DNA of 64,000 nt from Vulcanimicrobiota bacterium (lineage in GTDB: Bacteria; Vulcanimicrobiota; Vulcanimicrobiia; Vulcanimicrobiales; Vulcanimicrobiaceae), in assembly GCA_963820825.1 (NCBI GenBank), contig CAWGBN010000002.1:288001-352000 (forward strand), read 5' to 3'. Numbering within the stretch: the first letter of the stretch is position 1; each line of letters opens with the position of its first letter. The notes below the pieces were generated by a model that was not told the DNA's origin, searched no databases, and worked only from the letters and a program-made list of their open reading frames with translations. A program made the position numbers and the translations under genes. Of this stretch, positions 25,198-63,790 are shown one piece after another.

Positions 25198-25347
25198 GAC
25201 AACCTCCTAACGGCGCAATGATACCACACGTCCGTTGAGCCAACAAATCTTTCATCAAATTCGAAAACGGTTCCGCAGCCGGCGGGCCCGCCTCGGGATA
25301 TGAACCGTCGCGAGGAAGATTCATCCATGATGGCGCCGCAGCGCGTA

Positions 25348-25388
25348 CGGCGGAACGGACACTTGGACGACCGACTTGGACAAGTGGA
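25348..25388 (-). promoter_or_regulatory. 41-bp upstream element, copy 1 (ACTTGGAC direct repeat and ACTTG-GA-CAAGT palindrome)
   Basis: 39/41 identical to 29166..29206; both lie upstream of minus-strand lipoprotein genes. Confidence 0.6.
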
Positions 25389-25403
25389 TCACGGTTTATG
25401 CTT

Positions 25404-27701: not shown

Positions 27702-27791
27702 CGATCTAACCCGCTTTCTAAAAAGCGACGCGAGAGCGCGCGATGCCGATCGGAGCGGCGCATGCCATGATCATCCTGTTCGTCGCGCGGC

Positions 27792-29088
27792 TCACAACGA
27801 GTACAACTTGAAGAGCGTTCCATAATAATAGCCGTTACCGACCTGCGGGCCGCCTCCATTGGTACTGCCGTAGAGCGTGCCCCCGAGCATGGTGAGGGGC
27901 GCCTGCGAATCTCCGCCGCCCGGTGTGCCGCCGAAGGCCCAAAGAGGGGTTACCGCGCCTGAGGGCGTCATCGAGAACACCGTTCCGTCGTCGTACACGC
28001 CGCCGCCGCCAGTCGTGCCGTAGAACAAGCCCTTGCCGGAAACGAAGATGAGACCTGCGCCACGGATTGAAGCCGCTATAGCTACCATCGGAAAAGGTGT
28101 CGAAGTGGTAGACGACGGCCTCCGCGCCGGAGGGCATGACCGAGTAGACCGTACCGCAGCCGCCACGACATTGATTGTTATAAGCGTTGCCACCGCCCTG
28201 AACAGTCGTGCCGTAGAACGTGCCATTGACGTTCACGAGCCTTCCTCCATTCGGCGTGCCGCCGTCGTAAGGATAGCCGGCGAAGCTGTGGAGCACCGTC
28301 TCCGTACCGGTCGCCCTAGAGACCGCGAAGACCGTTCCCTCGTTGTTCGCGCCCCCGTACTCGGTCGTCCCGTAGAGCGTGGGGCCGACGTGGAGCAGCG
28401 GAGATATCGGGTGTGTGCCGTCCCCGAGACGCCGAAGCTGTAGAGGACGACCTCCGCGCCGGAAGGCGTCATCGAGAAGACCGTTCCCCCGTCGTACACG
28501 CCCCCATTCTCGGTCGTGCCATAGAGCTTGCCCCCGACATAGGTGAGGCCGGCATATGGGTTTTGGCCGTCCGAGCCGGGGTAGAAACTGTGAAGCACGC
28601 TTTCGGTTCCGGAGGTTGTGATCGAGTAGACTGTCCCGGCGTTGTACGCGCCTCCATCGTTGGTCGTGCCGTAGAGCGTGCCGTTGGCGTTGACGAGGCC
28701 GTCAGACGGATTGTAACCGTCATAAGGGCCGCCGAAGCTGTAAAGCAGGCTATAGCGCCGGAAGGCGCCATGGAGTAGACCGTTCCGATGCGGTTGGCAC
28801 CGCCGTGGTTGGTGATGCCGTACAGCGTGCCGCCGACGTTGACGAGCGGCCCTGGGGATAGGCGCCGTCTCCAGGAGCGCCGCCGAAGTCGTGGAGATAG
28901 GTCAAGGTCTCGCTGGCCTTTTTGACTCGGTGCCCCGCGTGGTCGCCAAAGGCGGCCCGCGTGCGGACTGATTGCGTCCCGACCTGCGATCCGACCGAGG
29001 TAGGCGTTGACGTAGAAAAACCGTTGCCGCACGCGGCTAAGAGCGCTGTGCTAAGGCACGCGCCGACGAACCCGTATGATCGTTTCAT
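27792..29088 (-). pseudogene. GloVer-type repeat lipoprotein split by several frameshifts
   Basis: Lipobox LAAC at 29088; the same repeat continues across overlapping ORF fragments 28750, 28469, 28233, 27835, 27792. Confidence 0.75.
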
Positions 29089-29165
29089 TTACCCTCCCCG
29101 CAACGGACGGTGGATGATGCCACCACAATTGGAACATTCCATCCATAATGACGCTGCGTCGCCAT

Positions 29166-29206
29166 CGGCGGAACGGACACTTGGACAACTGACTTGGACA
29201 AGTGGA
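29166..29206 (-). promoter_or_regulatory. 41-bp upstream element, copy 2
   Basis: cggcggaacggacacttggacaactgacttggacaagtgga; see 25348..25388. Confidence 0.6.
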
Positions 29207-31800: not shown

Positions 31801-33151
31801 TTACTGCCGCAGTTTGATTCCCGTTCCGTACCCTTTCTTGCCGCCGTATGTCGTCGTTCCGTAAAATGCGCGGTGCGAGTAGAGGAGTGCGTCGCGCGGA
31901 CTACCGCCGTTGGCGCCCCCCTTAAATCGGTAGACCATCTTGTACGCCGGATTTGATGACGACGGCGCAAAGCTGAAGATGGTCCCGCAGCCGATCTCCG
32001 CTTAAACAGGAAGTCCCTCCACCGATATTGGTGGTTCCGTAGAGCACGCCTTGTACGTTCGTCACAGCGGCTACCGGTTCAGAGCCATCGTCACCGTTGC
32101 CAAAATTGTGCAACACTTGCTCCTCCCCGGTCGAGAGGTCGACGCTAAAGAGCGTTCCCTCACAATGGCTACAATAGTATCCTCCACCGCAACAGGTCGT
32201 GCCGTAGAGCGTGCCTTTGACGTTGATCAGGCTTGCGAACGGGTTGCAGCCATCGCGCGGGTTGTTGAGAAAACTGTGGACGACCCGTTCGCCGCTACCG
32301 TCCGCGCCGATGCTGAAGACGGTGCCGCAGAATTGATTCGTTCCACCGAGGTCGGTCGTGCCGTAGAGCGTGCCGCCGACGTTGAGCAGGGCGGTGAACG
32401 GACTTGCCCCGTCGCCGAACTTTCCGAAACTGTGCAGCACCTGCTCCGTACCGGTAGCCGGGTTCACGCTGTACACCGTGCCGCACGTTCCGTTGGGCGA
32501 ACCTCCAGAATCCTTACACAACCGCTGATTGGTGTAGGTGCCCCCGGCGTTTGTCGTGCCATATAGAGTTCCGTTGACTTCGATCACACCCGATATTGGG
32601 TAGGCGCCATCCTGGCCGTAGCCAAAGCTGTGGACGATCGTCTCGGTATAACCCGACCGTTCGGATGGAGTTTGAAGAGTGTCCCGGCGTCGTATTCGCC
32701 GCCGTAGAACGTCACGCCATAGAGGTCGCCGCTCTTCTCCGCGAGCAGCGGCCCGAACGCCGCCGCTCCGTCGCCGGGGGCTCCTTCAAAGGTGTGAAGA
32801 ACGTCGATCTTATACGTCGGCTTGCCCTTATTTGGCACAAGACGATAAACGATGCCGCACCCGGTGTTCGAACTCGTGCTAAACGGCGTCGAGCAATTTG
32901 TATCTCCACCCGCCGTGGTAGCACCATAGAGCGCCGACGAGCTGCCGGTAAAGCCGCCGCTACCACGCCCTCCGATCTCGTAGCCCGACTTTCCGTAGTT
33001 ATAGAACGGAATGACGTGGACGGTCTGCGGGATGGAATCGAGCTTTGCGAGTGCGATCGGTGACCCACTCGCCGGCGTGACGGCAGGATGGTTGCACGAC
33101 GCCGCGGCGGCTAGACCAATCAATCGCAACGAGACGCATAAATTGCTTCAT
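31801..33151 (-). pseudogene. GloVer-type repeat lipoprotein with frameshifts
   Basis: GGAGG RBS and ATG at 33151; LYGTT repeats across ORFs 32584..33129 and 31922..32587; stop TAA at 31801. Confidence 0.7.
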
Positions 33152-43555: not shown

Positions 43556-43603
43556 AACGGGCCTTTGTTTATTGGCTCCCACTGCTGGACTCGAACCAGC
43601 GAC
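43556..43603 (-). repeat. att remnant: half hairpin plus variant tRNA 3' end
   Basis: aacgggcctttgtttattggctcccactgctggactcgaaccagcgac. Confidence 0.75.
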
Positions 43604-43892
43604 GCGCAGGCAGGTGGCCGCTCGGTCGCTCAGAAAAGACTGGGCATAGGGACTGCGTGATTCGGTCCTGAGCTGACGCACTACACCTCAACCAGAACGT
43701 TCTCCAGAGCGGGTTTTCGCGTCCTAAAGAACGCGATGGAGGGTATTCTTATGTCAAAGCAACATTGTGCGCTCGCGCCGATCCTGTTTGCTCTATTGCT
43801 ACAAGCATGCGCGGGTCCAACCGGCGGCCTCGAGTCTACTTCGTCATCCCGAAACGCTTGGGGCGCTAATCAGATTCCGTCAACTTCTCAAA

Positions 43893-44005
43893 AATAAAGG
43901 CCCATTACGCAACGGGCCTTTATTCATTGGCCCCGGATGCTGGACTCGTTCTTCGACTCGCGCCTCCTGCGCTCTGCTCAGAATGACGGACCCGCTGATT
44001 AACAG
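43893..44005 (-). repeat. att remnant: hairpin plus tRNA-Asn 3' half interrupted by a 40-nt insert
   Basis: tggccccggatgctggactcg [43949-43988] gacccgctgattaacag. Confidence 0.8.
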
Positions 44006-44025
44006 AAACTCAGCCATGGCGAGGT

Positions 44026-45048
44026 TTATTGAATCGCGATGCCTCCCGGGGAATCGAGCTTCGTCCTCGCGCCCTTAATCGTACGAATCGGCTCGACGTT
44101 GCCTCCGGTGCCGGGAGCATACACTGCTATGATGGGACCGCCGTTGACGACGTAGACGTTCTCGCTTGCATCGACTGCAACGCCGGCAGGATTGCTAAGC
44201 TTCGTTCTTCTGCCGTGGATTATCCAACTCGGCGCGACGTTCCCGTGCGCGCCGACTGGGAACGATGTAACGCAGTTGCAGAGCGCGCCTGCTGTGTAGA
44301 TGCTTCCGCCGCCCACGGCGACTTGCTCGTTATCGTAGAGACGCGTTCGGTGGCCGCCGATTGTTTGTATAGGAGCGACGTTGCCGGTCGCGCCGGCGGA
44401 GTAGACGGTGATGGTTTGGCTGTTGAAGTTGGGAACGTAGATATTGTTGCTCGTATCCAACGCGAGAGCGTACGGGACGTCGAGCCCGGTATTGGAGCCG
44501 GTGATCGTGTTGACCGGGGCGACGTTGCCGGTCGCGCCGGCGGAGTAGACGGTGATGGCCCCCTGCCCGCTTGGGCCACCAGCTCCGTTAGTGACGTAGA
44601 GGTTCTCTGATGAGTCCAGCGCAACGCCAATGATGTAGTTCATGGTGGTATTGGAGCCGGCGATTGTGCGGATCGGGCTGACGTTCCCGTTCGAGCCCGC
44701 GGCATAGACCGTGACGGAATCGTTGAACTCGCCGTTCACGTTGGCGACGTAGATGTTGCCGCTCGCATCGAGGCCGACATCGGTTGGATCGATCAGTCCC
44801 GTCCTACTGCCGCTGATCGTCTGTATCGGCTTGACGTTGCCGGTTGCGCCGATCGGATAGACGGTTACGGCGTTGCTTCCGGTATTCGCGACATACAGAC
44901 ACGGACACGGTGAGGTGCTCCTCTTTCCCATGAAGTGGTGCTGTTGAGGAACGGGGTCCGATGGGGATAGCGTATCGCTCATCCCGCCGCACGCGGCCAA
45001 GAGCGCTGCCGTAATGCACGCTCCCATCACGCTGCACAGATATCTCAT
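44026..45048 (-). CDS. NHL-repeat lipoprotein (CPCLxV family)
   Basis: RBS AGGAGG, lipobox LAAC, TSPCPCLYVAN, NHL repeats. Confidence 0.85.
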   Translation of the reverse strand: MRYLCSVMGACITAALLAACGGMSDTLSPSDPVPQQHHFMGKRSTSPCPCLYVANTGSNAVTVYPIGATGNVKPIQTISGSRTGLIDPTDVGLDASGNIYVANVNGEFNDSVTVYAAGSNGNVSPIRTIAGSNTTMNYIIGVALDSSENLYVTNGAGGPSGQGAITVYSAGATGNVAPVNTITGSNTGLDVPYALALDTSNNIYVPNFNSQTITVYSAGATGNVAPIQTIGGHRTRLYDNEQVAVGGGSIYTAGALCNCVTSFPVGAHGNVAPSWIIHGRRTKLSNPAGVAVDASENVYVVNGGPIIAVYAPGTGGNVEPIRTIKGARTKLDSPGGIAIQ

Positions 45049-45396
45049 TCCCGACCTCCTTTCAGAAGTAACGAGCTACGCCTCAAACCTTGGCTTGGCG
45101 CCGCCCTCGAGACGTGCCCGATCAGGTTCGATCCGACGCTCAGAGAACACCCAATAGCCCCGGTTGTTAGCGGAGGCAACTAGTATACAGCTAAAGGCTG
45201 CCCGCCCCTGCCGGCAGCGCGTCCCCAAACTTTGCCGTCGCCGCGGTGGACACCGTGTCCACCGGGAAACAGCGAGGTCCAGTTCACCAAGCCCATTCGC
45301 TGGGTCACACCGTAGTCGGTGACGATTCGGTCGCGTTCCGCGAGAAGGTCGGCGATGACATCGTCGCCGGTACGATCCCGGCTGCGGAAATACGCC

Positions 45397-45461
45397 CTTA
45401 GGCTGCACATTGCCGCACCAAGACAAAGGCCCGCTTCACGAACGGGCCTTCTGATTAACAG
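45397..45461 (-). repeat. att remnant: arm repeat, hairpin and anticodon-side core, with an internal deletion
   Basis: cttaggctgcacattgccgcaccaagacaaaggcccgcttc...cgggcctt ctgattaacag aligns to 63652-63759. Confidence 0.8.
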
Positions 45462-45660
45462 CATCGCAAACTACGCACGCATCCGCTGCTGGGAGCGGCG
45501 AAGGCATGTGGCGACATTTGCCCACAGGAAGCCGTCGAGTAAACGTTGTGGATGGGCACCCGCGCCCGGGCAAAGGCGCTCGCCGGATAATCGCGAATCG
45601 CGCAAATGGCAGGAATCTCCGTCACGAAACACGAGACGCGGAGATTCAAGGGAGGCTTTT

Positions 45661-46902: not shown

Positions 46903-49711
46903 TTAGAAGGCGAGGGCTGCCGCTACGGCTTGATCTTCGTTCCAGGCAGCGCCTTCAGCCATGAGCTTTGCAAGCTGGTCGTCGCCGAGCGCGTCGCGCA
47001 GTGCAGGGAGCATCTTATCGCGCTCTTGCCGTTCGGTGTGCTGCCGCAACGCTTCGATTCCATCCAAACGCGCATCGACGTAGCCTAGAAGCCGCGCAGC
47101 GCCGAGCCGATCGCCGCGCACGCGCTCCTCATCGTCGGCCCGGCGTAGCGCGGCGGTCGCTGCGAGATGCTGCAGACCCCATAATACGCCGGCCTCCCAT
47201 TGCGTGTCGCGTGCGGCTGCGAGCCCATCTCGGGCGGAAACGCGAGCGTCGTCGTAGCGTTCGAGCGCAGATCAGGTATGCCGCAAGTGTTGCACAGCGA
47301 AATCGCTGCGCCGAGTTTATGATTGAAGGTGCGATAGGTTGCGAGTGCCTCGTTCTCCAGTCGAAGGGCCTCGACGGCATTGCCCTCGTGAAACTCGGCT
47401 TCGGCTAGATTTCCCGCAATGTGCGAGCATACGCGCTCTGCGCCAACGGAGCGGAACATCGCCAATGCCTCGGCAAAGAGCGGCCGCGCTCCAGCCAGGT
47501 CGCCGGCGTGGTTGCGTGCGACCGCAATGCTTTGCAAGATATCTGCGATAACGCTGCGCACTCCAACTGCTCGCGCCTCCTTCAGCGCCGAGGCCAGCAT
47601 GTTCTCGCCTTCTTCGATGTCGCCGAGATCGACGAGCGCGCGGCCGAGGAGGTGTCGGGCCTGCGCAACGCGCAGGGGATCGTCAAGCTCGCTGTAGAGC
47701 GCCAGGGCGCGTTCTGCTCGCTCGCGAGCCGTCTTCCGTTGAGCGAGTGCGTAGCGATCGCCGCTTCGGCACAGATCGAGTGCGGCCTCGACCGAGGCCG
47801 GCATCGCGGTCGGCGGAGAGATCACGCGCGGCCCGAATCCACCGCTGTCCTTCCGCCGCAGCGAAGCGCGTCCACACCGGCCGGAGCGCCGCCGCCAGCC
47901 GTCGGCCGAGCAGCACGTCGCCCTGCGCTCCGAAGCGCCCAGGTGAGCGCCGCTCGGAAGTTCTCCAGCTCCGGCTCGGCGCGAGCAAGCCACGCGCGCT
48001 CGGGCGTCGTTTCAAAAATGCTATAGAGTTCTTCGCCGAGCGCGAGAATTGCAGCCGCGTGCAGCCGCGCGACGGCGGCATCCTCTCCCGCCTCGGCGAG
48101 GCGTTCGCGCCCATACTGCCGCATCGACTCGAGGAGCCGATAGCGCATTCCGCCTTCCGTTTCTTCCGCATGCACCAACGACTTGTCGACGAGCGACGAG
48201 AGCAGGTCGAGGATCTTCCCACGACTCGATTGCGTCTTCTGCGGCTTGGCTCGTCGGCGCTAACGGCGCCGGCCGTTTCGAGCGTCCACCCTCCGACGAA
48301 GATCGCCAGCCGCCGGAACAGCCTCTGCTCGTTCGGTGAGAGCAGATCGTAGCTCCAGTCTATCAGCGCGCGCATCGTCTGCTGACGCGGCACCGCCGTG
48401 CGGCTGCCCGCCGGTCAGCACGCGAAAACGCTCGTCGAGTTTCCGAGCCAGTTGTCGCGGCGCCAACACCTTTATTCGAGCCGCCGCCAGTTCGATCGCC
48501 AGCGCGATGCCGTCGAGGCGCCGGCAGATCTCCGCAACGGTTGGTGCGCTTTCATCGCTTCAACTCGAACTTCGCGTCGGATGCAGCGGCGCGCTGCGCA
48601 AAGAGCGCGACGGCCCCATAGCGCAGAGCGTCTTCCGCCGTGAGCCCATCGCTTTGCGCCGGAAAAGCCAGCGACGGCATGTGATAAACGTGCTCGCCGC
48701 CGATGCGCAGCGGCTCACGGCTGGTCGCCATTAACCGCACGCCGGGAGCGCCGCGCAAGATCGTATTCGCGATCTTTGCGACCTCGTCGATCACGTGCTC
48801 GCAGTTGTCGAGAAGTAGCAGCAGATTCTTGCTCTCCAGATAGCGCAGGAGGGTCTCGAGCACGGGACGTCCCGGCTGCTCGTGCAAACCCAGCGCCGTC
48901 GCGATCGTGCTCGGCGACCAGACTCGCATCGTTCGTCGATGCCAGCTCGACGAACCACACGCCATCGCCCGAACGATCGAGCAAATCCGCACCGACTTGG
49001 AGTGCGACGCGCGTCTTACCCACGCCGCCGGTGCCGACGAGCGTCACCAAGGCGTGCTCACGTATCAGCCGCTCGACCTCGGCCAGCACCTCGTCACGCC
49101 CAATGAGCGACGTAAGCTGACGCGGCAGGTTGTTCGGCATCGATTGGAGCGACCGCAGCGGTGGAAACGTTTGGGCTAGGCCCGGAGCGACGAGTTGCCA
49201 AACGCGCTCCGGTTGGGCGAGATCCGCAAGCCTGTGCTCGCCCAAATCGCACAACTCCGACGCGTTCGGGCATTAGACCGCGCAACAGCAACGCGGTTGC
49301 GCCGGAGAAGAGGACTTGGCCGCCGTGCGCCGTCGCTAACAGCCGTGCCACACGGTTCACGACCGGCCCAAAGTAGTCGCCGTCGCGCTCGTCGGTCGCG
49401 CCGCTGTGCAGGGCCATGCGAACCTGTAGGCCACCGATTGCGCTCCAATCCTCGTCTGAGAGTTCACGCTGCGCATCGATTGCCGCGGCAACTGCATCCG
49501 TCGCACGCCAGAACGCCGCGCAACACGCATCACCGACCGTCTTGAACACGTGACCGCCGTGCCTTTCGATCGCGGCGCGCAGCAGTTCGTCGTGGCGGCG
49601 CAACGCTGGCGCCATCGCGTCGCGTCGCTCTTCCCAACGCCGCGTGCTTCCCTCGATGTCGGTAAAGAGCAGCGTTACCGTCCCCGTCGGAATTGGAGCC
49701 GCCCGTGCCAT
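46903..49711 (-). pseudogene. Adenylate/guanylate cyclase + NB-ARC/STAND + TPR protein, multiply frameshifted
   Basis: [60 protein letters not shown] across several ORF fragments. Confidence 0.8.
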
Positions 49712-49936: not shown

Positions 49937-50218
49937 ATGGTTGCAAGAGCCGACTCACGATTGCTACGTCGATCGCCGAGAAAGCCTGCGGCTTTGCGCG
50001 CACGACCAGGCCGGGATTTGGCCGGCCTCTACGACCTGCGTCACACGGCCATCGAGAATCTCGTCGCCTCGGGAGTGCCGATGGATGTGATGCACGTTCT
50101 TGCCGGTCACGCGAACGCAGACGACGCTCCGGCACACAGCAAGCCCAGCGAGGAGCGCCGTCGCGCAGCCGTCGATTCGGTCGGCAAATGGCTCTCCGAG
50201 CGCACGGTCGCAAAATGA
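49937..50218 (+). pseudogene. Tyrosine integrase C-terminal remnant
   Basis: LYDLRHTAI..L...G.....V...LAGH (HxxR-like and LGH boxes); TTLRH in an adjacent frame; ends 100 nt before an att core. Confidence 0.75.
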
Positions 50219-50226
50219 GGACGGTT

Positions 50227-50463
50227 GCTCTACGGTCGCTCTACGGCGCGCACTCGGCAGGAGAGCACAAAAGAGCAACCCCCGCAAAGGAGCCTTATTT
50301 TGCGGGGGCTTTTACAATCTCCGGATGCTGGACTCGAACCAGCGACCCGCTGATTAACAGAACTTTCGCAACGTCTTGGTTCCATGCGGTTTCTCGATAA
50401 CTCGCCTTCTCTGGCTCTTATGTTTCCGTGATTTCTCACCTATTGGCTGCACAATGGCTGCAC
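50227..50463. repeat. Hybrid att junction: GCTCTACGG x2, hairpin, 42-bp tRNA-Asn core (50319-50360), TGGCTGCAC x2
   Basis: Core identical to 63718-63759; 50265-50463 is a near-identical direct repeat of 52337-52535. Confidence 0.9.
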
Positions 50464-50642
50464 CTGAGCACGACGTAGCGGGGCATCGTTATGGTCCTTC
50501 TCTAAATCCAGTAGACGCCCCCACAGTGTCTGGATATGGCAGACGTCACGGCGGATCAGGAGGCAGATAGGGTCAGTTGGTTAAGCGAATCATCTAGGCG
50601 CAGGGCTAATTCTCACTTACCTTACTTACGGCATCCTTTATT

Positions 50643-50918
50643 TTGATTCCAGCCGCACGGCTGCTTTATCTCGCCGTCGCGCCGCCACAGGGTGCGCTCC
50701 TGGGCATGGTGTTGGTGACCGCGCCCCGGCCGCTCTATCCGCACTACGCGGTCGCGGCCGGTTCACTGAAAGCCGCGCTCGCTGATCAAGGAAACGCCGC
50801 CGCGCTGATGTGGATCCTCGGCGGCGCCGTCGTCTTCGGCGCGTTGCTCGTTACGCTCGGGCGCTGGGCTCGGCGCGAACGGGAACCGTCGCTTCTGCGT
50901 CGAACCGGGGCGGCCTAG
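50643..50918 (+). pseudogene. 3' fragment of a CtaG-like cytochrome c oxidase assembly gene
   Basis: RLLYL...LG..L..A..PLYPHY...ALADQ..A..LMW..G resembles the Caa3_CtaG C-terminus; no 5' part. Confidence 0.6.
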
Positions 50919-50956
50919 CTTGCGGTGCTTTGCAACTGCAGAAAGGGATCGCGATC

Positions 50957-52000
50957 GTGCGCTTTTTACACATGACGTACGCGGCTGTCTCGACGCTCGC
51001 GCTGTTTTTGATTACGGGCTGCGCGCAGGATGGTACGCAGCCGGCCATCGTCGGTCAGCAAAACCAGGTCCGAGCGAAACACACGACGTCTTCATGTCCG
51101 TGCCTGTACGTCACCAACTGGGCGGGGCAATCGATTACCGTCTACCCAGTCGGCGTTACCGGTAACGTAGCACCCATAGCAGTCATCGCCGGTCCTCAGA
51201 CCGGAATCGACCTCCCATACGGCGTCGCGTTGGATGCAAGCGGCAACATCTACGTGACAAATTTTGACTACAACTCCGTCACGATCTATGCCGCCGGTGC
51301 TAACGGCAACGTCATGCCAACCGCGACCATCATGGGCTCGAATACTAAGCTGCTCGACCCCGAGGGCATCGGCATCGATCCTAGCAACGGGAACATTTAC
51401 GTTCAGAGCTTAAACGGTCCGAGTGGCAACCCCAGCATCCTGGTCTTTGCCGCCGGTTCAAACGGCAACGTCAGCCCGGCTGAAGTAATCGAAGGTTCAA
51501 AAACGGGGCTGACCGACCCCGTCGATCTTACGTTGGACGGCGGCGCAAACATCTACGATGTCGACGTCGCCAATTTCATCAACGTCTATGCCGCAGGCAC
51601 TACCGGCAACAAAAGGCCAGCGCGCAAGATCAAAGGCGGTCTCACCAAACTGAACCTTCCCTTCGGCGTGACGGTTGACTCCAGTTTCAACGTCTACGCA
51701 GCTAACAACGGCGGCGGCGAGAGCAGTATCACCGTTTATGCCTCCGGCGCAACCGGAAATGTCGCCCCCATCCAACGCATCAAGGGTCGCAAGATTGAAC
51801 TAACAGATCTCCACGGCGTCGCCGTCGACAGTTCACGCAACATCTACGCTTCCAACGGTGCCGGCGAAGTGCGCTCCTGTTCGGGCTGCAACTTCATAGC
51901 CGTCTATGCCTCCGGCGCGACCGGCAACGTAGCGCCCATCAGGGTAATCGCGGGAACGAATACAGGTCTCGACGGTCCGAGCGGGCTCACGATTCACTAA
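50957..52000 (+). CDS. NHL-repeat lipoprotein (CPCLxV family)
   Basis: GTG start, lipobox ITGC, SSCPCLYVTN, NHL repeats. Confidence 0.85.
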   Translation: MRFLHMTYAAVSTLALFLITGCAQDGTQPAIVGQQNQVRAKHTTSSCPCLYVTNWAGQSITVYPVGVTGNVAPIAVIAGPQTGIDLPYGVALDASGNIYVTNFDYNSVTIYAAGANGNVMPTATIMGSNTKLLDPEGIGIDPSNGNIYVQSLNGPSGNPSILVFAAGSNGNVSPAEVIEGSKTGLTDPVDLTLDGGANIYDVDVANFINVYAAGTTGNKRPARKIKGGLTKLNLPFGVTVDSSFNVYAANNGGGESSITVYASGATGNVAPIQRIKGRKIELTDLHGVAVDSSRNIYASNGAGEVRSCSGCNFIAVYASGATGNVAPIRVIAGTNTGLDGPSGLTIH

Positions 52001-52299
52001 AGAATTGCGGGGCATGAAGAATAGAACTTTAGATCCGCATTTGCTGCCATTGAGTCGCTGGCCTCGCGTTCGATGCAGTTCTCGCGCGCGTGCGCGCGCG
52101 AAGCTTCTAAATCACGTAAGCTTCCTGTACGGGCTCGACGGATGGCGCCCGGTGGGAACCATGTAGAACCCCGGATTCCCGGTAAGTCGACGCCTGTGGA
52201 ACCGCAGCAAGTGAGGCAAGGATTCTCATCTCCCCTGGCGTTCTCCGAAATCGCGACGATGCGCTTAAAGGCAAAGCGCCGACTCGGCGGGGCAGTGCG

Positions 52300-52535
52300 G
52301 ACTTAGGCTGCACATGGCTGCACCCAAATCGCGACGGCACAAAAGACAAACCCCTGCAAAGGAGCCTTATTTTGCAGGGGTTTTCAAACACTCCGGATGC
52401 TGGACTCGAACCAGCGACCCGCTGATTAACAGGACTTTACAACGTCACGGTTCCATGCGGTTTCTCGACAGACTCGCCTTCTCTGGCTCTCATGTTTCCA
52501 CGATTTCTCACCTATTGGCTGCACAATGGCTGCAC
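52300..52535. repeat. attP-like junction: GGCTGCAC x2, hairpin, 42-bp tRNA-Asn core (52391-52432), TGGCTGCAC x2
   Basis: 52300-52327 identical to 63650-63677; core identical to 63718-63759. Confidence 0.9.
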
Positions 52536-52613
52536 AACAGTTCAACGAATCGAAAACCCCGCGCCCCTGGTTAACAACCAACGTAACACCGTTTTCTACG
52601 TCGCAGCTCCCAA

Positions 52614-53393: not shown

Positions 53394-54598
53394 TTAGAAG
53401 CTATGGAGCCAGTTCTCGGTCCCGGCGGTCGTCATGCTAAATACCGTGCCGTGACCGTTGGCGCCCCCATTTACCGTAGTACCGTAGAGTACGCCGCCGA
53501 CATTTAGCAGCGTCCCCGTGGGGTTGGCGCCGTCTGGGCCGCCGAAATTATAGAGCACGTGATACGTGCCGGTCGGCGTGATAGAGAAGAATACTCCGTC
53601 ATCGTGCGTGCCACCCCTTACAGTTGTGCCGTAGAACGTATTTCCGACATCAGCTAGGCCCCCACCAGGATAATTACCATCCCATCCGCCGGCGAAAGGA
53701 TGCAGTAGCTGAAACGTTCCGGTCGTGCTGATCCTGAAAATACTGCCGTAGAGGCTGCAGTTGTCCCCAAATGCCGTCCCGTAGAGCCACTGACCATGCT
53801 TAATCATTGTTCCGGTGGGGTTATCGCCATAGCCTCCGCCGGGGAAACTGTAGAGAACCGTCTCTATCCCGGACGGGGTCAGAGAGAATATCGTTCCGCA
53901 GTCAGAGGTACCGCCGTTTTCCGTCGTTCCGTACAGCGTACCATTGTCTTTGGTCAAGCCACTCGCCGGCCCGTAGGCATCGGGAAAGTCTTGAAAACTC
54001 CAGAGCAAGCTCTCGGGACCGCCGGCGGGCATCTGAAAAACCGCCCCATAGTTCATCGATCCTCCGAACGAGGTGACACCGTAGAACGTCCCGTTTTGCA
54101 CGACCAGACTGCCGTTGTTTGGCCACTGGCCGTCGGACGGGGCACCCTGAAAACTGTGCTTCACCGTTTCGACACCGGAGGTCGTAACCCGAAAAACGGT
54201 TCCAAGATTCTGAGTGCCGCCTCCTGAGGTAGTGCCCCACAGCGCGTTGCCGCGTTGCACGAGACCTGCAGGGGGTCCCGCGCCGTCCGGTGTTCCTTGG
54301 AAGCTGTAGACTATGTTCTCTACGCCCGTCGTCGTAATGGAGAACACGCTGCCCAGGTTGTGGCTGCCTCCAGAAGACGTCGTTCCGTAGAGAACCCCTC
54401 CGACATCGATTAACCCTGCTCTCGGACTGGCTCCATCGGTCGATGGCGTCACGCGATGGTGTCCCGCAAGGGACTTCTGATCCCCACGTTCGGCCGTCCC
54501 ACATTCATACTTGTCGTCGGCGGGCCCGCATTCGAACCGCAATCGGTCAAACCAAGCCCAATCAAAACCAGCAGCACGCCTACAAGACTCTTAGCCAT
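53394..54598 (-). pseudogene. GloVer-type repeat lipoprotein, frameshifted after the signal peptide
   Basis: ATG 54598 gives MAKSLVGVLLVLIGLGLTDC; repeats lie in ORF 53394..54542 in another frame. Confidence 0.7.
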
Positions 54599-55077
54599 GC
54601 CTTTAATCCTTCCGCCGACCCCGTAGTCGGCTTAAGCTCCTAGTAGTAGCGCAGTATCTGTTCGCGTCCGGTGCTTGTAACCTTGCAAACCTCGCCGCGG
54701 CGTTCGATTGGATTCGCTCCTACTCGTCACCGGCGAAAGTCAGAGCACTCTGTATGGTTGTTGGCTCAGTGGCGCCCGCCCAATCAAGCATGAGCGGCCG
54801 TTTGAACGAGAAGTCCGATGCTACCGCAACACCATGTTGCCGATAGAAAGCGGCGCGCCGTTGATTGTCTTCCTTCAGTGGCAAAACCGCGACCTTGATC
54901 ATGAACGCTGCGTAGCGCTCCGCGCTAAGAGATGACATGTATCGAGCCTCGGCTTCTGCGTTCTCAAAACTCTGCACGTCCCTCGGTGAAATTACAAATG
55001 CGAGGACTGACGTGAGGTGAGAAAACGGCTCAAGTTGAAACTGTGAGTTCCGGGCCTCTGGCCCTAAGGAGACTCAC

Positions 55078-55374
55078 GTGAAAAAGACTCGCTTCACCGA
55101 AGCGCAGATCGTCGCGATCCTCAAAGAGCTCGACGCCGGCACGACCGCGACGGAGCTTGGTCGCCGGCACGGAATTCATGCCAATACGATCCGCCTGTGG
55201 CGCGATAAGTACGCCGGGATGCAAACCAGCGATCTGGTGCGCATGAAACAGCTCGAGGCCGAGAACACGCAGATGCGGCGAATCATCACCCGCCAAGCCC
55301 TCGAGATCGACGCCGTCAGGGAGCTGATCTCAAAAAACGGCTGGGGCCCGAGCAGCGCAAAGAAGCGGTCGTAG
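55078..55374 (+). CDS. IS3 OrfA
   Basis: KKTRFTEAQIVAILKE HTH; slippery AAAAAAC at 55332-55338. Confidence 0.85.
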   Translation: MKKTRFTEAQIVAILKELDAGTTATELGRRHGIHANTIRLWRDKYAGMQTSDLVRMKQLEAENTQMRRIITRQALEIDAVRELISKNGWGPSSAKKRS

Positions 55375-55376
55375 CG

Positions 55377-55890
55377 TTGCACACCAAGGGCCTGTCCACG
55401 TTCCGGGCTTGCGCTATCGTTGCGCAGCCCTACCGATCGCTGTTCAACAAGAAAAAGGCTGAAAAGCGCGCAGACACGCGGCTGAAGGAATGCATCGGCA
55501 AACATGCGCAGCAGCGGCCGCGGTTCGGCTGGCGCCGGCTGTTGATCCTTGCGCGCCGTGAAATACCTGGCACCGGGGAGTACCGATTTCGAAGGCTTTA
55601 TAAGGCTCTTGGGCTTCAAGTACGGCCTCGAAAGAAGCGCAAGGTCAACTACGTCCGCGGAAACGCGATTTCGACCGTTAGTCGCCCCAACGAACGGTGG
55701 TCGATCGACTTCATGCACGACAGTCTTGGGAACGGCCGGGCCTACCGTACGATGAACATCGTTGACGACTTCACGAGCGAATGCCTCGCTTTGGAGCCGG
55801 CGTTCTCGTTTGGTTCTCATGATGTGACGCGTTGCTTCGAGGAGATCGCGTTCGAACGCGGCTTGCCGGCCGCCGTGCGTTTTGACAACG
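55377..55890 (+). pseudogene. IS3 OrfB (rve) N-terminal part; continues at 57447-57523, 58899-59074 and 60348-60363
   Basis: WSIDF, IVDDFTSECL, VRFDN|GPEFTS...FIEPG|KPTQNAKIES...TPLE|YANKF*. Confidence 0.85.
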
Positions 55891-57446
55891 AGCTAAGTAC
55901 GAAAGTCAACCCCACTAGTAGGCATAACGATGCCCGTCGACAGCAAAGCCGAGCTTGCACACCCTTGCCGAGATGCCCCTCGACGACGCAATAGCTCCAA
56001 CCATGATGACACAAGGTCTCGGAAACGAGCCTTCACCGAGCTCAAAACGGAGTTTGCTGCCGATCGGGAGATCCGAGCATTATCTACGAGGTCGTAGTCG
56101 CCTCAACGGCCCAGCGAAGGGATTCTCCCGTCGTGCACCGCCGCTTCGAAATAGTGGCGGTACTCTTTTCCAGATTTGATCAAGCCGTAAGCGACGCGCG
56201 CAATCTTCGCTGCTACGGCGACATACGCTCTTCTTTTGAGATCGGCATCCAGTGGATCGCGACGAACGTAGTCGTCGTACTTTTTCCGAAACGAGTTTCG
56301 GCGCTGATTGATGGCAGCATTGGCTGCCATCCAGAAGGCCCATCGCAGTCGAGCATTGCCGCGTTTGGAGAGCTGCGGTCGGCCGCGTGACGTTCCGGAT
56401 TGCATCGTCGACAAAGAAAGGCCACAGTAGTTAAGAAATTTGCGATGGTGGCTGAAGCGGCGTAAATCTCCGCCTTCAGCGAGAACCGTTAGAGCAACAA
56501 TAGGGCCGATTCCAGGGATAGAGCGCAGGCGCTGATAATCGATGTTGTTCTCGAGTTGTGCGTCAATGAGCTCCTGAAGCTGCCGTCGAAGCTTCATGAG
56601 GCCGATGTACTGCTCAATCGCGAGTTGGAACATCTGGGCGGCCTGCGAATCCGCCGCCACTGGAATTCCCACGCTTTCCTTGGCAATTTCGTAGTAGCTG
56701 GCGACGAGACTTTGCCGAGATGTAAAATGCCCTCCCGCTGCAGTAAACCTTTTGACGAATGTCCTTTTGGTATATTGAAGGACCGTGGAAGGGCATGGCG
56801 CTATGCGCATGACCTCCAAGAACCACTCGCCGCGCGGATTGCTCAGGAAGGGCTCTGCTTCCGGGAAGTACAGCGGCAAATAGTGCGTCATCAGCGAATG
56901 GTAGGCTCGCGTCTTTCGGTCGGTGATCTGCCGATAGGTACCGAGCAGTTCCTGAAGATCTTGGTTGCCACGTTGCAGTGGATCGGCGAACACCTGCGTT
57001 GTACCGCTCTTGAGCAAATGCAGAATCACCTGCGCATCCTTCGGATCGTTTTTATCCCACGAGTTGAACAGCGCTTCTCTCGTCCGATTTGTAGCGATCG
57101 ACGATACGAAATGAACGCGGTGGCCTCGCCGGAGCAAGAAGTTCGCCAGGGGTCGGTGATAGTCTCCGGTTGGTTCCAGCGCGACCTCGCAGGGAAGATG
57201 CGGCGCCAGAATCCCTGCCAACTCGTCGAAACCTTCTTGCGTGTTTGGAACTGTCAAACGCCGGCGAATGCCGGCCTCGTCCTCCAGCAGCGCCACGTGT
57301 CGGTTTTTGGCGACGTCGATTGCGAGCCAGGCGGGCGTCGTTGGAGCAGCACGGAACTTTGCCATAGGGTCGTTGCCTCCAGCGGAGATGAGTCAGATAC
57401 ACCTCCGTTCGCCATGGGGGCAGCGCCCCGTCTTGTATGTATCACG
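55891..57446 (-). mobile_element. IS110-family element
   Basis: Removing it restores GAC AAC GGC CCA GAG of the IS3 gene; ACG core at both ends; no terminal IRs. Confidence 0.9.
56103..57365 (-). CDS. IS110-family DEDD recombinase/transposase
   Basis: AIDVAK, LEPTG, KNDPKDA, IPGIG, CGL...QSG, SKRGNARLR. Confidence 0.92.
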   Translation of the reverse strand: MAKFRAAPTTPAWLAIDVAKNRHVALLEDEAGIRRRLTVPNTQEGFDELAGILAPHLPCEVALEPTGDYHRPLANFLLRRGHRVHFVSSIATNRTREALFNSWDKNDPKDAQVILHLLKSGTTQVFADPLQRGNQDLQELLGTYRQITDRKTRAYHSLMTHYLPLYFPEAEPFLSNPRGEWFLEVMRIAPCPSTVLQYTKRTFVKRFTAAGGHFTSRQSLVASYYEIAKESVGIPVAADSQAAQMFQLAIEQYIGLMKLRRQLQELIDAQLENNIDYQRLRSIPGIGPIVALTVLAEGGDLRRFSHHRKFLNYCGLSLSTMQSGTSRGRPQLSKRGNARLRWAFWMAANAAINQRRNSFRKKYDDYVRRDPLDADLKRRAYVAVAAKIARVAYGLIKSGKEYRHYFEAAVHDGRIPSLGR

Positions 57447-57523
57447 GCCCAGAGTTTACGAGTCGCGCGATGCTGCAATGGGGTGCAGAGCAGAAAGTCC
57501 ATCTACACTTCATCGAACCCGGC

Positions 57524-58890
57524 GATTACGTCCCGGCGCGTGGTGTATGAACTGCGACCCCGACGAAGTGGGCGATCAGCTGATAACGGCCGAAAGCCTG
57601 GCGATCTGATTGTCGCTTACGGCGTTCATTCCTTCGAGCTGCATGTACCGCCGCTGCAACTGCCATTCATCGTTCTGTTCCAGCAGCAGCGCACCGACGA
57701 GTCGTACGATCGCGGCCTCGTTGGGAAAGATGCCGACGACGTCAGTCCGGCGTTTGATCTCGGCGTTGATGCGCTCGAGCGGGTTGGTTGAAGCGAGTTG
57801 TTTGCGGTGGGCTTTGGGAAAGGCCATGAAGGCGAGAACGTCTTCTTCGGAATCGTCCAACATCGCTGAGAGCTTGGGAAACTTCTCGCGGAGTTGATCG
57901 GCGACGGTGCGCCATTGTTGGTGCGCCGCCTCGGCCGTTTCTTGAGCGAACACCGTATTGATCAGCGCACGAACCATTTCTCGCTGCCCTTTGCCGGCGT
58001 GGGCTAGCGCGTTGCGCATGAAGTGCACGCGGCAGCGCTGCCACGTCGCCTTGAAGACTTTGGCGATCGCGGCTTTGAGACCGATGTGGCGAATCGGAGA
58101 TCACGAACTTGACGCCACGCAGTCCGCGCCGTCTCAGGCTTCTGAGAAACTCGCGTCCAGAACGGCTCGGCTTCGCTGGGACCCGTCGCCAAGCCTAAAA
58201 GCTCGCGCGTACCGTCGGTATTGACGCCAACGGCCAGTATTACGGCGACCGAAACGATGCGGCCCGACGCGCGCACTTTCACGTACGTCGCGTCGATCCA
58301 CAGATACGGCCAGTCGCCCTCGATCGGCCGATTGAGAAACGCTTGCACGCGCTCGTCGATCTCGCTGCACAAGCGCGAGACTGGCTCTTGGAGATCCCCG
58401 TCATCCCCAGTGCCTTCACCAGTTCGTCAACCGAGCGGGTTGAGATGCCCTGAATATACGCTTCCTGGATCACCGCCGTCAGCGCTTTCTCGGCCGTGCG
58501 ACGAGGCTCCAGGAAGCCAGGGAAATAGCTGCCCTTGCGCAGCTTAGGGATGCGCAGATCGACTGCGCCGGTGCGCGTTTCCCAGAGCCGGTCGCGATAC
58601 CCGTTGCGGCAGTTCTCGCGAGGAGCGGCTCGCTCGCCATAGGCGGCGCCGCAGAGGGCCTCCACGTCCATCTCCATGAGTTTCTGGGCGGCGAGATGAA
58701 GCATGTCGCGCACGAGATCGACGTCGGGGCCCTTTTCAGCGAGCTCCGTAAGTGCGATACTGGTCTTGGCCATTGTGGGTTCCTTTCGTCGGTAGTTTCT
58801 TTGCAAAAACAACCTTCGCCGAAAGCCACGATGGCCGCTCTCTATCCTATGAGGGCGGCCCCTTCATACACCACGCCCTGGGACACGATC
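57524..58890 (-). mobile_element. IS256-family element
   Basis: 27-bp imperfect IRs; 8-bp target duplication AACCCGGC (57516-57523 and 58891-58898). Confidence 0.9.
57576..58773 (-). pseudogene. IS256 transposase, frameshifted
   Basis: [53 protein letters not shown] across three frames. Confidence 0.85.
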
Positions 58891-59162
58891 AACCCGGCAA
58901 ACCAACGCAAAACGCCAAGATCGAATCGCTAAACGGCCCGATCCGAGACGAGCTGCTCAATGCCCACGTTTCACGACGATCTAAACGAGGCGCGGGCGCT
59001 TGCCGCAGTTGGAGAAAGGACTATAACGAGGTCCGGCCGCACTCGTCTCTCGGCGGCTTGACGCCGCTGGAGTAAGAGGTGGCCTCGGTTAGTCGGACAG
59101 CCTGATATGTGATGATTTCGCTCCCTCTGGGTCGAAAAGATCCGTGAAAAGGAGCAGTCATC

Positions 59163-59462
59163 TTGAAACGTTCTCGCCGCAACCACACGCCGGCCTTCAA
59201 GGCTAAGGTGGCGATCGCCGCGATCAAGGGCGATCAGACCGTCGCCGAGCTCGCCAAGCGCTTCGACGTCCATCCGAATTCGATCGTGCAGTGGAAAACC
59301 CAACTGCTCGAGCGAGCCGATGAAGCCTTCGATGGCGACGGACCAAAGCAGAACGGCCCCGATATCAAAGAGCTTCACGCCAAGATCGGCCAGTTAGCGC
59401 TGGAGAACGATTTTTTAGAACACGCGCTCGGACGTATCGACGGGTCGAGCGCAAAGCGATGA
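59163..59462 (+). CDS. IS3 OrfA (inner element)
   Basis: RRNHTPAFKAKVA..., KIGQLALENDFL; slippery TTTTTTA near 59411. Confidence 0.85.
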   Translation: MKRSRRNHTPAFKAKVAIAAIKGDQTVAELAKRFDVHPNSIVQWKTQLLERADEAFDGDGPKQNGPDIKELHAKIGQLALENDFLEHALGRIDGSSAKR

Positions 59463-60284
59463 TCGATCGCGACCACGCTTTGCCGCTCTCGCATCAAGCG
59501 GAGCTGCTGGACCTCTCTCGCAGCGGTCTTTACTACGGAGCCGTACCGGTCTCGGGCAGCGGATCTCGAACTCATGCGTGAGATCGATCGGCTGCACACC
59601 GACTACCCGTTCGCCGGCGCAAGAATGCTGCGCGACTTCCTGCGGCTCAGGGGCTATCGTGTCGGCCGCCGGCATATCGCGCGGCTGATGCGCCTGATGG
59701 GCATTGAAGCGCTCTATCGCAAGAAGAAAGGCACCAAGACCAATCCGGAGCACCCCGTCTTCCCCTACCTTCTTAGAAACCTCGTCATCGAACGCCCGAA
59801 TCACGTCTGGGCAGCGGATATCTCGTACATTCCGATGCGCCGCGGTTTCTTGTATTTGTTCGCGGTACTCGACTGGGCAACGCGACGGGTTCTGGCTTGG
59901 CGGCTCTCCAACAGCTTGACGACGGATTTCTGCATCGATGCCGTCGAGGAGGCGATCGCAAAGTACGGCTGTCCTGAAATCTTCAACACCGATCAAGGAT
60001 GCCAATTCACCGACAAGGATTTCGTCGGCATGCTCAAGACTACGAGATCGCGATCAGCATGGACGGCCGGGGCGCCTGGCGCGACAACGTCTTCGTCGAA
60101 CGCTTCTGGCGCTCGATTAAGTACGAAGAGGTCTATTTGCGTGCTTACGACTCTGCGAGCGAGGGTAAGCACTTCATCGGCCGCTACGATCGATTCTATA
60201 ACGCAAACCGACCGCATTCGTCGCTCGGCGGCCAAACGCCGGACGCGGTATACTTCAGTCAGGCCGACCAAAAAGGCGGCGTAA
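59459..60284 (+). CDS. IS3 OrfB (inner element) with apparent indels
   Basis: WAADISYI, FNTDQGCQF, DNVFVERFWRSIKYE. Confidence 0.8.
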
Positions 60285-60413
60285 CTGGCGGAGTCATCAC
60301 ATAACGGGTGCCGATTTCGTGTCCAAAAAACCGGCGCCACCTCTGTATGCGAACAAGTTCTAAAATGACACCTGCTCACAGTTCCTCCTTATGCTAAAGA
60401 CCACCTCACGTCA

Positions 60414-61720: not shown

Positions 61721-62082
61721 TCCGCCGCGGCCGTTTGCGTTGGCCAATCGAACTCGGGGCAGGCAACAATGCTGCTCCAAATGCTCTGCCGCGGCAACAC
61801 CGGCGCGCGCGAACCAAACCCGGAAGTGAGCGACGTGGAAGCGCCGCGCGACCAGAAGTGTTTCAACGTGCGCGCCCGTAGCCTCAAACTGTATAGAGCA
61901 GGGACTCCTAAAGCCTTAGAGCGTAGCCGTGCGTAGTCGCCGACGGTGCAAAAGCCCGTAAAGTACCCGCTTTTTCGGACGCCACCGGCAGCGCTGACGC
62001 CTTAGGGGCCTTAGGGCAACCAACCAGTCGCGTCGAACATCTTAGGGCGCTGATCCGTTCCGGGAGCTAGGAGGCACGGCCC

Positions 62083-62445: not shown

Positions 62446-63471
62446 ATGCGATTTCATCGGACACTTCTGACCGCGACGATCGGGGCCATGCTGATCGCTG
62501 CGTGCACGAACGCGCAGTCTGAGATAGGTAGCTCGACGTTGCCTCGCTCGCCCGTACGTGTCGGGCCGGACGCGCCCGGGCCAACGCCGGCACCGCTGGC
62601 AACAGCGAGCTGGGAGCAGAGCCTCTTCATTAACGACGTCGTGACCGTGAACAACGGTGTGTGCAGCACCTCTTGTCCGACCAAGCTCTTCAAGAACGGT
62701 ACCTGGACTGCTAACGGATCTTTCAACACCAGCGGATACCCCATGGGCCTCTGGAGCGATCAGAAATATTTGTACGTCCCCAACTTCGTTAACGCGACCA
62801 CCGCAAGTGTAAACGAGTATCGCCCCAACGATCCTTCACCGATCTTCTCCTATTCGAACGGTTTGACATTCGTCACATCTGTGTCGACCCAGCTGCTGGG
62901 GAACGTACATTACGTGTTCGTTACGGGAGGATACAACACGAACTACGAGGCGAACTTCGTTCAGCAGTACCAGCGGGACACAAACACGATTATTGCCACG
63001 TGCTACCCCCATGGCAACGTAAATCTCATGGGCGTCGCCGTCGCTCCTAACGGAAACGTATTCGTCGACTACAACGACAGTCTCGACGTCGGGCACCTCG
63101 TCGAGTACGTCGGGGGCCTGGCCGGATGTAACGCAACGCCGTTGCCGATGACCTTCCTGGGACATGTGACCGGGATAGCGCTCGACAACGCCGGAAGGCT
63201 CTTGATTTGCAACACTCACGGTGCGGCGGCCATCGACGTCATCGACCCGCCGTATACCAGCATATCCGGAACGCTTGGCTCGGGCTTCATGTTCCCGGAT
63301 TCCATCTCGATCAATGCAAACAATAACCTTGCCTTCGTTGCCGATGGGCTCCTTGAGCAAGTCAGAGTGCTCCAATACCCAAGCGGCGCACTCGTTCAGA
63401 CGATTGGTACCGCCAATGGGTTGAACGGGCCGCGCGGTGGCGCCGTGGAGTGGGTCAACTACGGCTTTTAG
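62446..63471 (+). CDS. Beta-propeller lipoprotein
   Basis: Lipobox IAAC; shares GPTPAP.ATASWE, WSDQKYLYVPN and W.NYGF* with 60740..61720. Confidence 0.8.
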   Translation: MRFHRTLLTATIGAMLIAACTNAQSEIGSSTLPRSPVRVGPDAPGPTPAPLATASWEQSLFINDVVTVNNGVCSTSCPTKLFKNGTWTANGSFNTSGYPMGLWSDQKYLYVPNFVNATTASVNEYRPNDPSPIFSYSNGLTFVTSVSTQLLGNVHYVFVTGGYNTNYEANFVQQYQRDTNTIIATCYPHGNVNLMGVAVAPNGNVFVDYNDSLDVGHLVEYVGGLAGCNATPLPMTFLGHVTGIALDNAGRLLICNTHGAAAIDVIDPPYTSISGTLGSGFMFPDSISINANNNLAFVADGLLEQVRVLQYPSGALVQTIGTANGLNGPRGGAVEWVNYGF

Positions 63472-63680
63472 TCGGTCTACGGCTTAACCAGCTCGAACGA
63501 AATCGTCGTGCCTGTAGAGAGCGCCGGCAACAGCGGCAGCGGCGTATACGGCGACGTGCCGGCGCCGATGCCGATCGGCGAATGCTTCTGTTCCATCGGA
63601 TTCGATCTAATAGCGCTCTGGCTGGACCGGCCGAGTTCCAATCTTGGCTGACTTAGGCTGCACATGGCTGCACCCAAGAC

Positions 63681-63710
63681 AAAAGGCCCGCTTCGTAAAC
63701 GGGCCTTTGT
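63681..63710 (-). terminator. Intrinsic terminator downstream of tRNA-Asn
   Basis: aaaggcccg/cgggccttt stem with flanking U-runs. Confidence 0.75.
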
Positions 63711-63714
63711 TTAA

Positions 63715-63790
63715 TGGCTCCGGATGCTGGACTCGAACCAGCGACCCGCTGATTAACAGTCAGCTGCTCTACCAACTGAGCTAATCCGGA
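63715..63790 (-). tRNA. tRNA-Asn(GTT)
   Basis: TCCGGATTAGCTCAGTTGGTAGAGCAGCTGACTGTTAATCAGCGGGTCGCTGGTTCGAGTCCAGCATCCGGAGCCA; cloverleaf, GTT anticodon, encoded CCA. Confidence 0.97.

Follow-up and report, generated by a model that had tools for sequence, protein, structure and literature searches.

We analyzed a 64,000-nucleotide stretch of the genome of a Vulcanimicrobiota bacterium (the window, G000:C2:288001-352000; all positions are window coordinates unless a contig is named), in which a 2072-bp unit (50361-52432) lies downstream of a tRNA-Asn gene. The source genome, G000, is 2.98 Mb long and 85% complete. The unit is probably a decayed, integrase-less derivative of a tyrosine-recombinase island that resembles a cis-mobilizable element (CIME) and sits in a tandem accretion array; we give this reading a probability of roughly 0.62. 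As such, it would be one more case of a known kind of structure, in which islands stack in tandem at a tRNA and leave CIME-like remnants, a pattern that is ordinary at hotspots of this sort. According to PMC5704250, CIMEs keep both attachment (att) ends and have lost the integration genes, and in the accretion model described there, arrays form by integration, decay, and further integration.

Copies of the tRNA-Asn 3′ end delimit the unit

One end of the array is formed by an intact tRNA-Asn gene. Its last 42 nucleotides, which reach from the acceptor stem to the anticodon loop, are repeated five times downstream in the same orientation, as two perfect and three eroded copies. At least five units follow the true tRNA-Asn (window ∼43.5–63.8 kb), with these copies between them. 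An intact tRNA followed by partial repeats of its 3′ part, all in one orientation, is the arrangement of a tRNA-targeting island array, and it counts in favor of a decayed island. The tRNA and its partial copies (cores) are as follows.

63715..63790, minus strand: intact tRNA-Asn(GTT), the integration target and attB/attL side (ARAGORN; Rfam tRNA, 71.8 bits)
52391..52432, minus strand: tRNA-Asn 3′ core copy, 42/42 nucleotides, junction J2
50319..50360, minus strand: tRNA-Asn 3′ core copy, 42/42 nucleotides, junction J1
45396..45462, no strand: eroded junction with a degenerate motif A (see below), a hairpin, and a tRNA core reduced to CTGATTAACAG at 45452-45462
43930..44005, minus strand: eroded tRNA core copy with a ∼34-bp internal insertion
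43575..43607, minus strand: degenerate partial tRNA copy, the outermost

The 2072-bp unit extends from just past one perfect core (J1) to the end of the next (J2), with a period of 2072 bp. As in a CIME, direct repeats of the target 3′ end (42/42 nucleotides) stand on both sides, and neither integrase nor transfer genes were found among the Pfam-scanned open reading frames (ORFs) of the unit. The initial annotation had described a unit of this length that holds a truncated CtaG-like frame and a lipoprotein gene between intact att ends; both the perfect cores and the Pfam matches given below bear out this description.

Paired repeats adjoin the cores

The repeated sequence is wider than the tRNA piece. 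Positions 50265-50480 and 52337-52552 are 86–91% alike (90% for 50265-50366 versus 52337-52438 and 86% for 50400-50480 versus 52472-52552, both with the period of 2072 bp), and in a whole-genome search the junction repeat was found at 91% over 199 bp. On the tRNA-3′ side of the core, a terminator-like hairpin is followed by motif A, a paired 8-mer of the form GGCTGCAC-AT-GGCTGCAC (at 63656 and 52306). On the other side, ∼85 bp away, lies motif B, GGCTGCAC-AAT-GGCTGCAC (at 52517 and 50445). In the whole 2.98-Mb genome, there are only four exact copies of the paired motif, each within ∼125 bp of a tRNA core, which counts in favor of a decayed island; a fifth, degenerate copy of motif A is located at 45401. 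The following segments make up the arms beside the cores, together with an integrase remnant.

63654..63714, no strand: tRNA-proximal arm of island 1, hairpin and motif A (GGCTGCAC-AT-GGCTGCAC)
52433..52552, no strand: distal arm of island 1, motif B at 52517-52535
52303..52390, no strand: tRNA-proximal arm of the 2072-bp unit, motif A at 52306-52323, hairpin at ∼52350-52381
50361..50480, no strand: distal arm of the 2072-bp unit, motif B at 50445-50463
50227..50318, no strand: tRNA-proximal arm of island 3, hairpin at ∼50279-50308, with a different paired 9-mer (GCTCTACGG, twice) at 50227-50246
49937..50218, plus strand: integrase stub, C-terminal 93 amino acids only (PF00589, E 0.0067, below cutoff)

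Hence both element-derived arms are kept in the 2072-bp unit. At J1, the paired GCTCTACGG stands directly before the 93-residue integrase end, which is 72% identical to the end of a 401-residue integrase from the related genome G017. That intact integrase occupies the same position beside tRNA-Asn and adjoins paired 10-mers of its own, with a further 10-mer copy near the far end of its 7.3-kb island. Because of this correspondence, we read the paired repeats, including the 8-mers of the unit, as putative integrase arm sites that would vary with the type of integrase. The change of the paired arm repeat of island 3 in step with the integrase type likewise counts for the decayed-island reading.

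Alternatively, the two 216-bp junctions could stem from duplication or unequal homologous recombination in the array instead of separate integrations, which would make the unit a by-product of rearrangement. The likeness of the junctions on both sides of the core would fit such an origin. A hairpin of this type is also found behind the only tRNA-Asn of G022 and of G154, so that part of the repeat may be native flank. However, the similarity ends exactly at the differing arm repeats (GGCTGCAC pairs versus GCTCTACGG pairs), and other genomes have these arm types around different cargo. Furthermore, the cores are identical but the arms differ by 9–14%, the pattern that distinct yet related elements should show, and we consider a rearrangement highly improbable.

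Intact islands occupy the same tRNA-Asn in related genomes

Tyrosine recombinases are found at the tRNA-proximal end of islands in several relatives. Intact integrases of 353–433 residues occupy this position in G017, G005, and G183, whereas the window has only the 93-residue stub there. In G017, the tRNA is followed by the hairpin, the paired 10-mers, the 401-residue integrase, a helix-turn-helix (HTH) gene, AAA_25, lipoprotein cargo, a partial tRNA, and the next integrase. The island of G005 comprises integrase, Prim-Pol, resolvase, and restriction-modification genes over 14 kb and is followed by integrase-less units of 0.75 and 2.1 kb. G183 carries a first island of 13 kb with integrase, terminase, and AAA_25, and a second of 17 kb that is bounded by both arm types and contains IS256, AbiJ, a 402-residue integrase, and eight lipoprotein genes, after which an NHL unit follows. 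The integrase of this 17-kb island lies 3.3 kb from the arm and is a candidate cognate of the arm type that it shares with the 2072-bp unit.

At least five integrase lineages, 28–42% identical to one another, are present at tRNA-Asn in the genus (loci L065, L047, and L069/L070), and their companion modules differ (AAA_25, Prim-Pol, or a terminase large subunit). Consecutive tRNA-Asn cores are spaced 0.75–2.1 kb apart in 7 of 91 genus genomes, and the short units inspected between such cores contain one ORF (or two small ones), several of them lipoproteins. tRNA-Asn is a hotspot in the genus. Since the backbone of G022 resumes ∼10 kb past tRNA-Asn with a homolog of the window gene at 5938-7101, the comparison suggests that ∼56 kb of the window (∼7100-63715) is variable island DNA, rich in β-propeller lipoproteins and STAND-type ATPases.

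The unit holds a ctaG fragment and an intact lipoprotein gene

The only recognized cargo of the 2072-bp unit is the 3′ part of a ctaG gene (ctaG′) and an intact NHL-repeat lipoprotein gene, which begins 38 bp past the ctaG′ stop codon. Between the arms, the unit is composed as follows.

50481..50652, no strand: spacer between distal arm and ctaG′, ∼170 bp, lower GC by eye, no homolog found
50653..50918, plus strand: ctaG′, last third of a Caa3-type CtaG, pseudogene fragment (Pfam; alignment to a full-length CtaG of 231 residues)
50957..52000, plus strand: NHL-repeat lipoprotein gene, 347 amino acids, lipobox LITGC, SCPCLYV motif, intact (Pfam NHL, E 9.5e-7)
52001..52302, no strand: spacer between NHL gene and tRNA-proximal arm, ∼300 bp, first 67 bp common to G164

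A frame of 91 residues (50643-50918) matches Pfam Caa3_CtaG (PF09678) with an E value of 3.8e-11 and 43.3 bits (cutoff 27.7). The match covers profile positions 162–236 of 237, so that the frame is truncated at its 5′ side and retains only the last third of the domain. Over the homologous part (∼50653 to ∼50888), ctaG′ shows 80% amino acid and 82% nucleotide identity to the full 231-residue CtaG of G158. In contrast to a working CtaG, it aligns only to the last ∼75 positions, is without two thirds of the protein, and is without a qcrB neighbor, and its sister copy in G164 is frameshifted. No other ctaG was found in G000, which makes ctaG′ the only copy, and the qcr operon that precedes ctaG in G158 is lacking in G000.

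The NHL gene encodes a predicted lipoprotein with NHL repeats and a lipobox cysteine; LITGC and SCPCLYV were read from the translation. The motif CPC[LIVM][YF]V marks six genes in the genome (window 38062, 42645, 44907, and 51095; G000:C7:3917 and 23430), four of which thus lie in this window, by the tRNA-Asn hotspot. One of them is the second CPCLYV NHL lipoprotein gene, in unit 4:

44026..45048, minus strand: CPCLYV NHL lipoprotein gene (Pfam; 92.8% nucleotide identity to G164)

Apart from the 67 bp shared with G164, neither spacer gave a blastn or tblastx match in the genome or the fetched loci, and no other ORF of the unit matched Pfam. The same searches, including Pfam, returned nothing for the scraps at the position expected for an integrase gene. 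A promoter scan of the unit found no sigma-70-like site, a result that carries no weight either way.

ctaG′ is displaced from its conserved context

To place ctaG′ in context, we inspected ctaG in relatives at 44 loci, of which the genus contributed 33 and other genera of the family 11 (one of the 11, L028, from the unpublished genome G140). In all 44, ctaG directly follows a qcrB-like gene, and in none does an NHL homolog lie within ∼1.5–3.3 kb. Therefore, ctaG′ is displaced DNA of a chromosomal operon. The initial annotation had called the fragment the 3′ end of ctaG; the Pfam match confirms that it is CtaG, and the constant qcrB neighbor in relatives shows that it is out of its normal context. 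The further claim of a captured chromosomal fragment stands as far as displaced chromosomal DNA is concerned, but none of the 44 loci has the arrangement proposed as the source, in which a CPCLYV NHL gene would come after a full-length ctaG.

ctaG is in the course of loss across the genus, which likewise counts for a decayed island. It is present in 35 of the 90 other genus genomes and in 52 of 100 sampled family genomes, and the copy of G003 is a pseudogene that decayed in place, in backbone DNA. Where ctaG and tRNA-Asn are found on one contig (G173, G192, G191, G169, G195, and G022), they are 0.29–1.28 Mb apart.

A second truncated gene adjoins another arm. The initial annotation had reported orphan coding-like scraps at two further unit ends, one of which proved to be a coding fragment:

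63477..63560, minus strand: 3′ fragment of a small lipoprotein gene, ∼27 codons, truncated side facing the arm (82% nucleotide identity to G000:C2:106230-106311; C-terminal alignment by eye)

Its paralog is the gene at G000:C2:105611-106309. The other scrap, at 45180-45390, could not be shown to be coding; it has no Pfam match and no match in the 90 other genus genomes except for its first 70 bp, which occur in G164.

From such scraps, it had been concluded that an imprecise reaction fills the space between the att ends of the elements with arbitrary pieces of chromosome, with a ctaG-NHL locus as the source, and that this implies an unknown capture step. The displacement of ctaG′ from a context conserved in 44 of 44 loci, the second 5′-truncated gene beside an arm, and the gap of only 38 bp between ctaG′ and the NHL gene are all consistent with capture. 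Yet the NHL gene is not a neighbor of ctaG in any of the loci, the scrap at 45180-45390 is without a detectable source, and ctaG pseudogenes also arise in place in the genus. Moreover, the array is rich in deletion scars (the integrase stub, tRNA copies that have eroded, a broken-up cyclase/ATPase gene, and insertion sequence (IS) fragments). Because deletion would account for truncated genes that face an arm, no new capture step is needed, and the decay of ctaG′ and the intact, integrase-bearing islands at the same tRNA in relatives also speak against the implied step. We regard capture as very unlikely.

A block of the unit is shared with a sister species

The sister species G164 has the same locus, and the shared blocks there keep their order and orientation with respect to tRNA-Asn. 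The identity between the window and G164 is 92.8% at 44005-45219, 93% at 50658-50757, and 94.5% at 50821-52067, whereas it falls to 81.5% in the adjacent syntenic backbone, measured over 13.9 kb. From this difference, the two shared blocks must have been exchanged horizontally and be much younger than the species split, as judged by sequence identity; the vehicle was presumably island cargo. We dropped the argument that the perfect cores are younger than the block, as only ∼3 changes would be expected.

In G164, ctaG′ starts within 5 bp of the same cut point and carries a frameshifting deletion of 67–68 bp. A metagenome scan with a block-specific word of 23 nucleotides returned two contigs, both with the G164-type arrangement. 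Between the two species, the NHL gene (50957-52000) shows 39 synonymous and 14 non-synonymous changes (dN/dS 0.11; 0.36 for the other NHL gene), in contrast to 2 synonymous and 5 non-synonymous changes over the 96 comparable nucleotides of ctaG′. These substitution patterns, together with the frameshift, indicate that the NHL gene is a working gene under purifying selection and that ctaG′ is a pseudogene, a neutral relic.

Several observations weigh against a decayed island. Apart from the true gene, G164 has only a single partial tRNA, which does not flank its ctaG′-NHL block. No recognizable att ends were found around this block by word-7 BLAST, and local alignments of G164 to the arm edges score 24 and 22, inside the range of 200 shuffles (maxima 27 and 29); the block therefore need not have moved together with these arms. 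In none of the relatives did we see an island with a longer element that contains the whole of ctaG. Furthermore, none of the nine motif-A arms seen in six genomes (three in G000, two in G183, and one each in G192, G013, G002, and G005) has an integrase directly beside it. Three of these arms adjoin the true tRNA, the side on which the youngest element should sit. Motif-A arms without an adjoining integrase equally fit a non-autonomous, helper-dependent family. Survivorship of immobile remnants may explain their lack of integrases. In G000, no homolog with >33% identity to any of five tRNA-Asn-linked integrases was found except the 93-residue stub, a result that counts for a decayed island; however, with the genome 85% complete, a cognate integrase may lie in the missing part.

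A helper-dependent family would consist of naturally integrase-less mini-elements, that is, gene cassettes with att arms, which a helper integrase encoded elsewhere inserts and excises, thereby building an array of exported-protein genes. Besides the integrase-free motif-A arms, the intact arms and 42-nucleotide cores of the unit fit such a family, as do the short units that 7 of 91 genus genomes have between tRNA-Asn cores and a block far more similar between two species than the backbone. The 2.1-kb unit of G005 also fits: it has the same two arm types and different cargo, a lipoprotein gene that is a 67% homolog of window 62446-63471. However, no helper integrase was identified, and G000 has none that is akin to the integrases at tRNA-Asn. 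In G164, the shared block is without arms, a dead gene stub and spacers are untidy cargo for a dedicated cassette, and the neighboring units show random erosion of their cores. On balance, we think such a family unlikely; it is the main rival of the decayed-island reading.

In a more novel form of this idea, an integron-like system would operate on tRNA att sites at the tRNA-Asn locus of the genus, in which a helper integrase inserts, shuffles, and swaps integrase-less units between species. The arms of these units, with their paired GGCTGCAC sites, would be conserved, and most units would carry just one exported-protein gene. We consider this quite unlikely; if true, the region would be a swappable array of surface lipoproteins.

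Proposed origin and comparison with known systems

For a decayed island, we infer the following order of events. Islands would insert into the 3′ part of tRNA-Asn, and successive insertions would push older elements outward, resulting in the tandem array of at least five units. Internal deletions would then have stripped the 2072-bp unit to one selected lipoprotein gene and a neutral ctaG stub. Where deletions removed backbone modules beside an arm, they would have left truncated genes facing that arm, as in ctaG′ and the small-lipoprotein stub (63477-63560). The truncated ctaG would be a deletion scar in cargo that came from the chromosomal qcrB-ctaG operon of some member of the genus. In G000, the unit is unable to move on its own; past movement, if any, would have been as a passenger of a neighboring autonomous island or by means of a helper integrase.

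According to PMC5704250, CIMEs and the ICESt1/ICESt3-related elements of Streptococcus thermophilus, like the present array, lie at a target gene's 3′ end, in tandem with elements related to them. The building of arrays by integration, decay, and further integration is likewise shared with CIMEs, with ICEs (elements that are integrative and conjugative), and with IMEs (those that are integrative and mobilizable). In contrast to ICE and IME islands, no conjugation genes were seen here, the target is tRNA-Asn, and the host belongs to an uncultured soil phylum. The autonomous relatives carry an integrase and HTH with AAA_25 or Prim-Pol replication genes.

A preprint on tRNA-linked islands of Prochlorococcus (10.1101/2020.12.28.424599) describes stacked elements, together with degenerate or fragmented integrases and scattered partial tRNAs that stay behind in a persistent island. 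These tycheposons, as presented there, are similarly tyrosine-recombinase elements with replication modules and cargo that insert at specific tRNAs and stack with partial tRNAs in between. The cargo differs, being mostly exported β-propeller lipoproteins here and not nutrient-uptake operons; this comparison covers features other than the integrase clades.

Similar to integron cassette arrays, the units are short, point in one direction, and many hold a single promoterless-looking gene by a fixed insertion point. In contrast to integrons, the unit boundaries are tRNA 3′ cores with arms of ∼50–120 bp, and units hold pseudogene debris. We rejected an integron, as no IntI was found in the window, where PF00589 gave no signal other than the stub (49937-50218); no search for attC sites was made.

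Other features of the window

Island 1 contains a cluster of insertion-sequence genes (∼55000-60400):

56103-57365: IS110-family transposase
57576-58028 and 58279-58812: Mutator/IS256-family transposase, in two pieces
59574-60284: rve-type transposase

A tRNA-Arg(CCT) is represented by its 5′ half at 61866-61911, likewise in island 1 and with a lipoprotein gene on either side; it shows 94% identity to the two genomic copies on contigs C5 and C7. The C5 copy lies ∼0.2 kb from a Phage_integrase (PF00589) match, for which reason the half gene may be the att remnant of an element with another tRNA specificity. In island 3, an adenylate/guanylate cyclase, AAA ATPase, and TPR gene (47085-49711) is split over at least three frames and is probably a pseudogene. 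Between the shared blocks, where G000 has island 3, G164 carries a DUF1801 gene of lower GC by eye (G164:C5:75707-76270; L045 5708-6271).

Long genes composed of ∼150-bp repeats (families D1–D9) that encode “LYGTT”-type repeats are found at 25400-28850, 32170-32735, and 53430-54310; they have no Pfam match. A repeat of ∼67–89 bp occurs at 25322-25388 and 29140-29206 of the window and, at 85–90% identity, at G164:C5:73231-73311 and 82605-82692.

Significance

The locus is a worked example, from a soil phylum that is poorly known and a genus without a cultured model, of the way in which a large variable region grows at a tRNA hotspot. As this case illustrates, a truncated stub of a housekeeping gene beside an att arm does not attest a novel mechanism of capture. 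Of all the features, only the integrase-less units that recur with intact arms might reward experiments. The variable region, ∼56 kb here versus ∼10 kb in one relative, is made up of stacked, decaying islands and is where surface lipoprotein genes are kept and exchanged.

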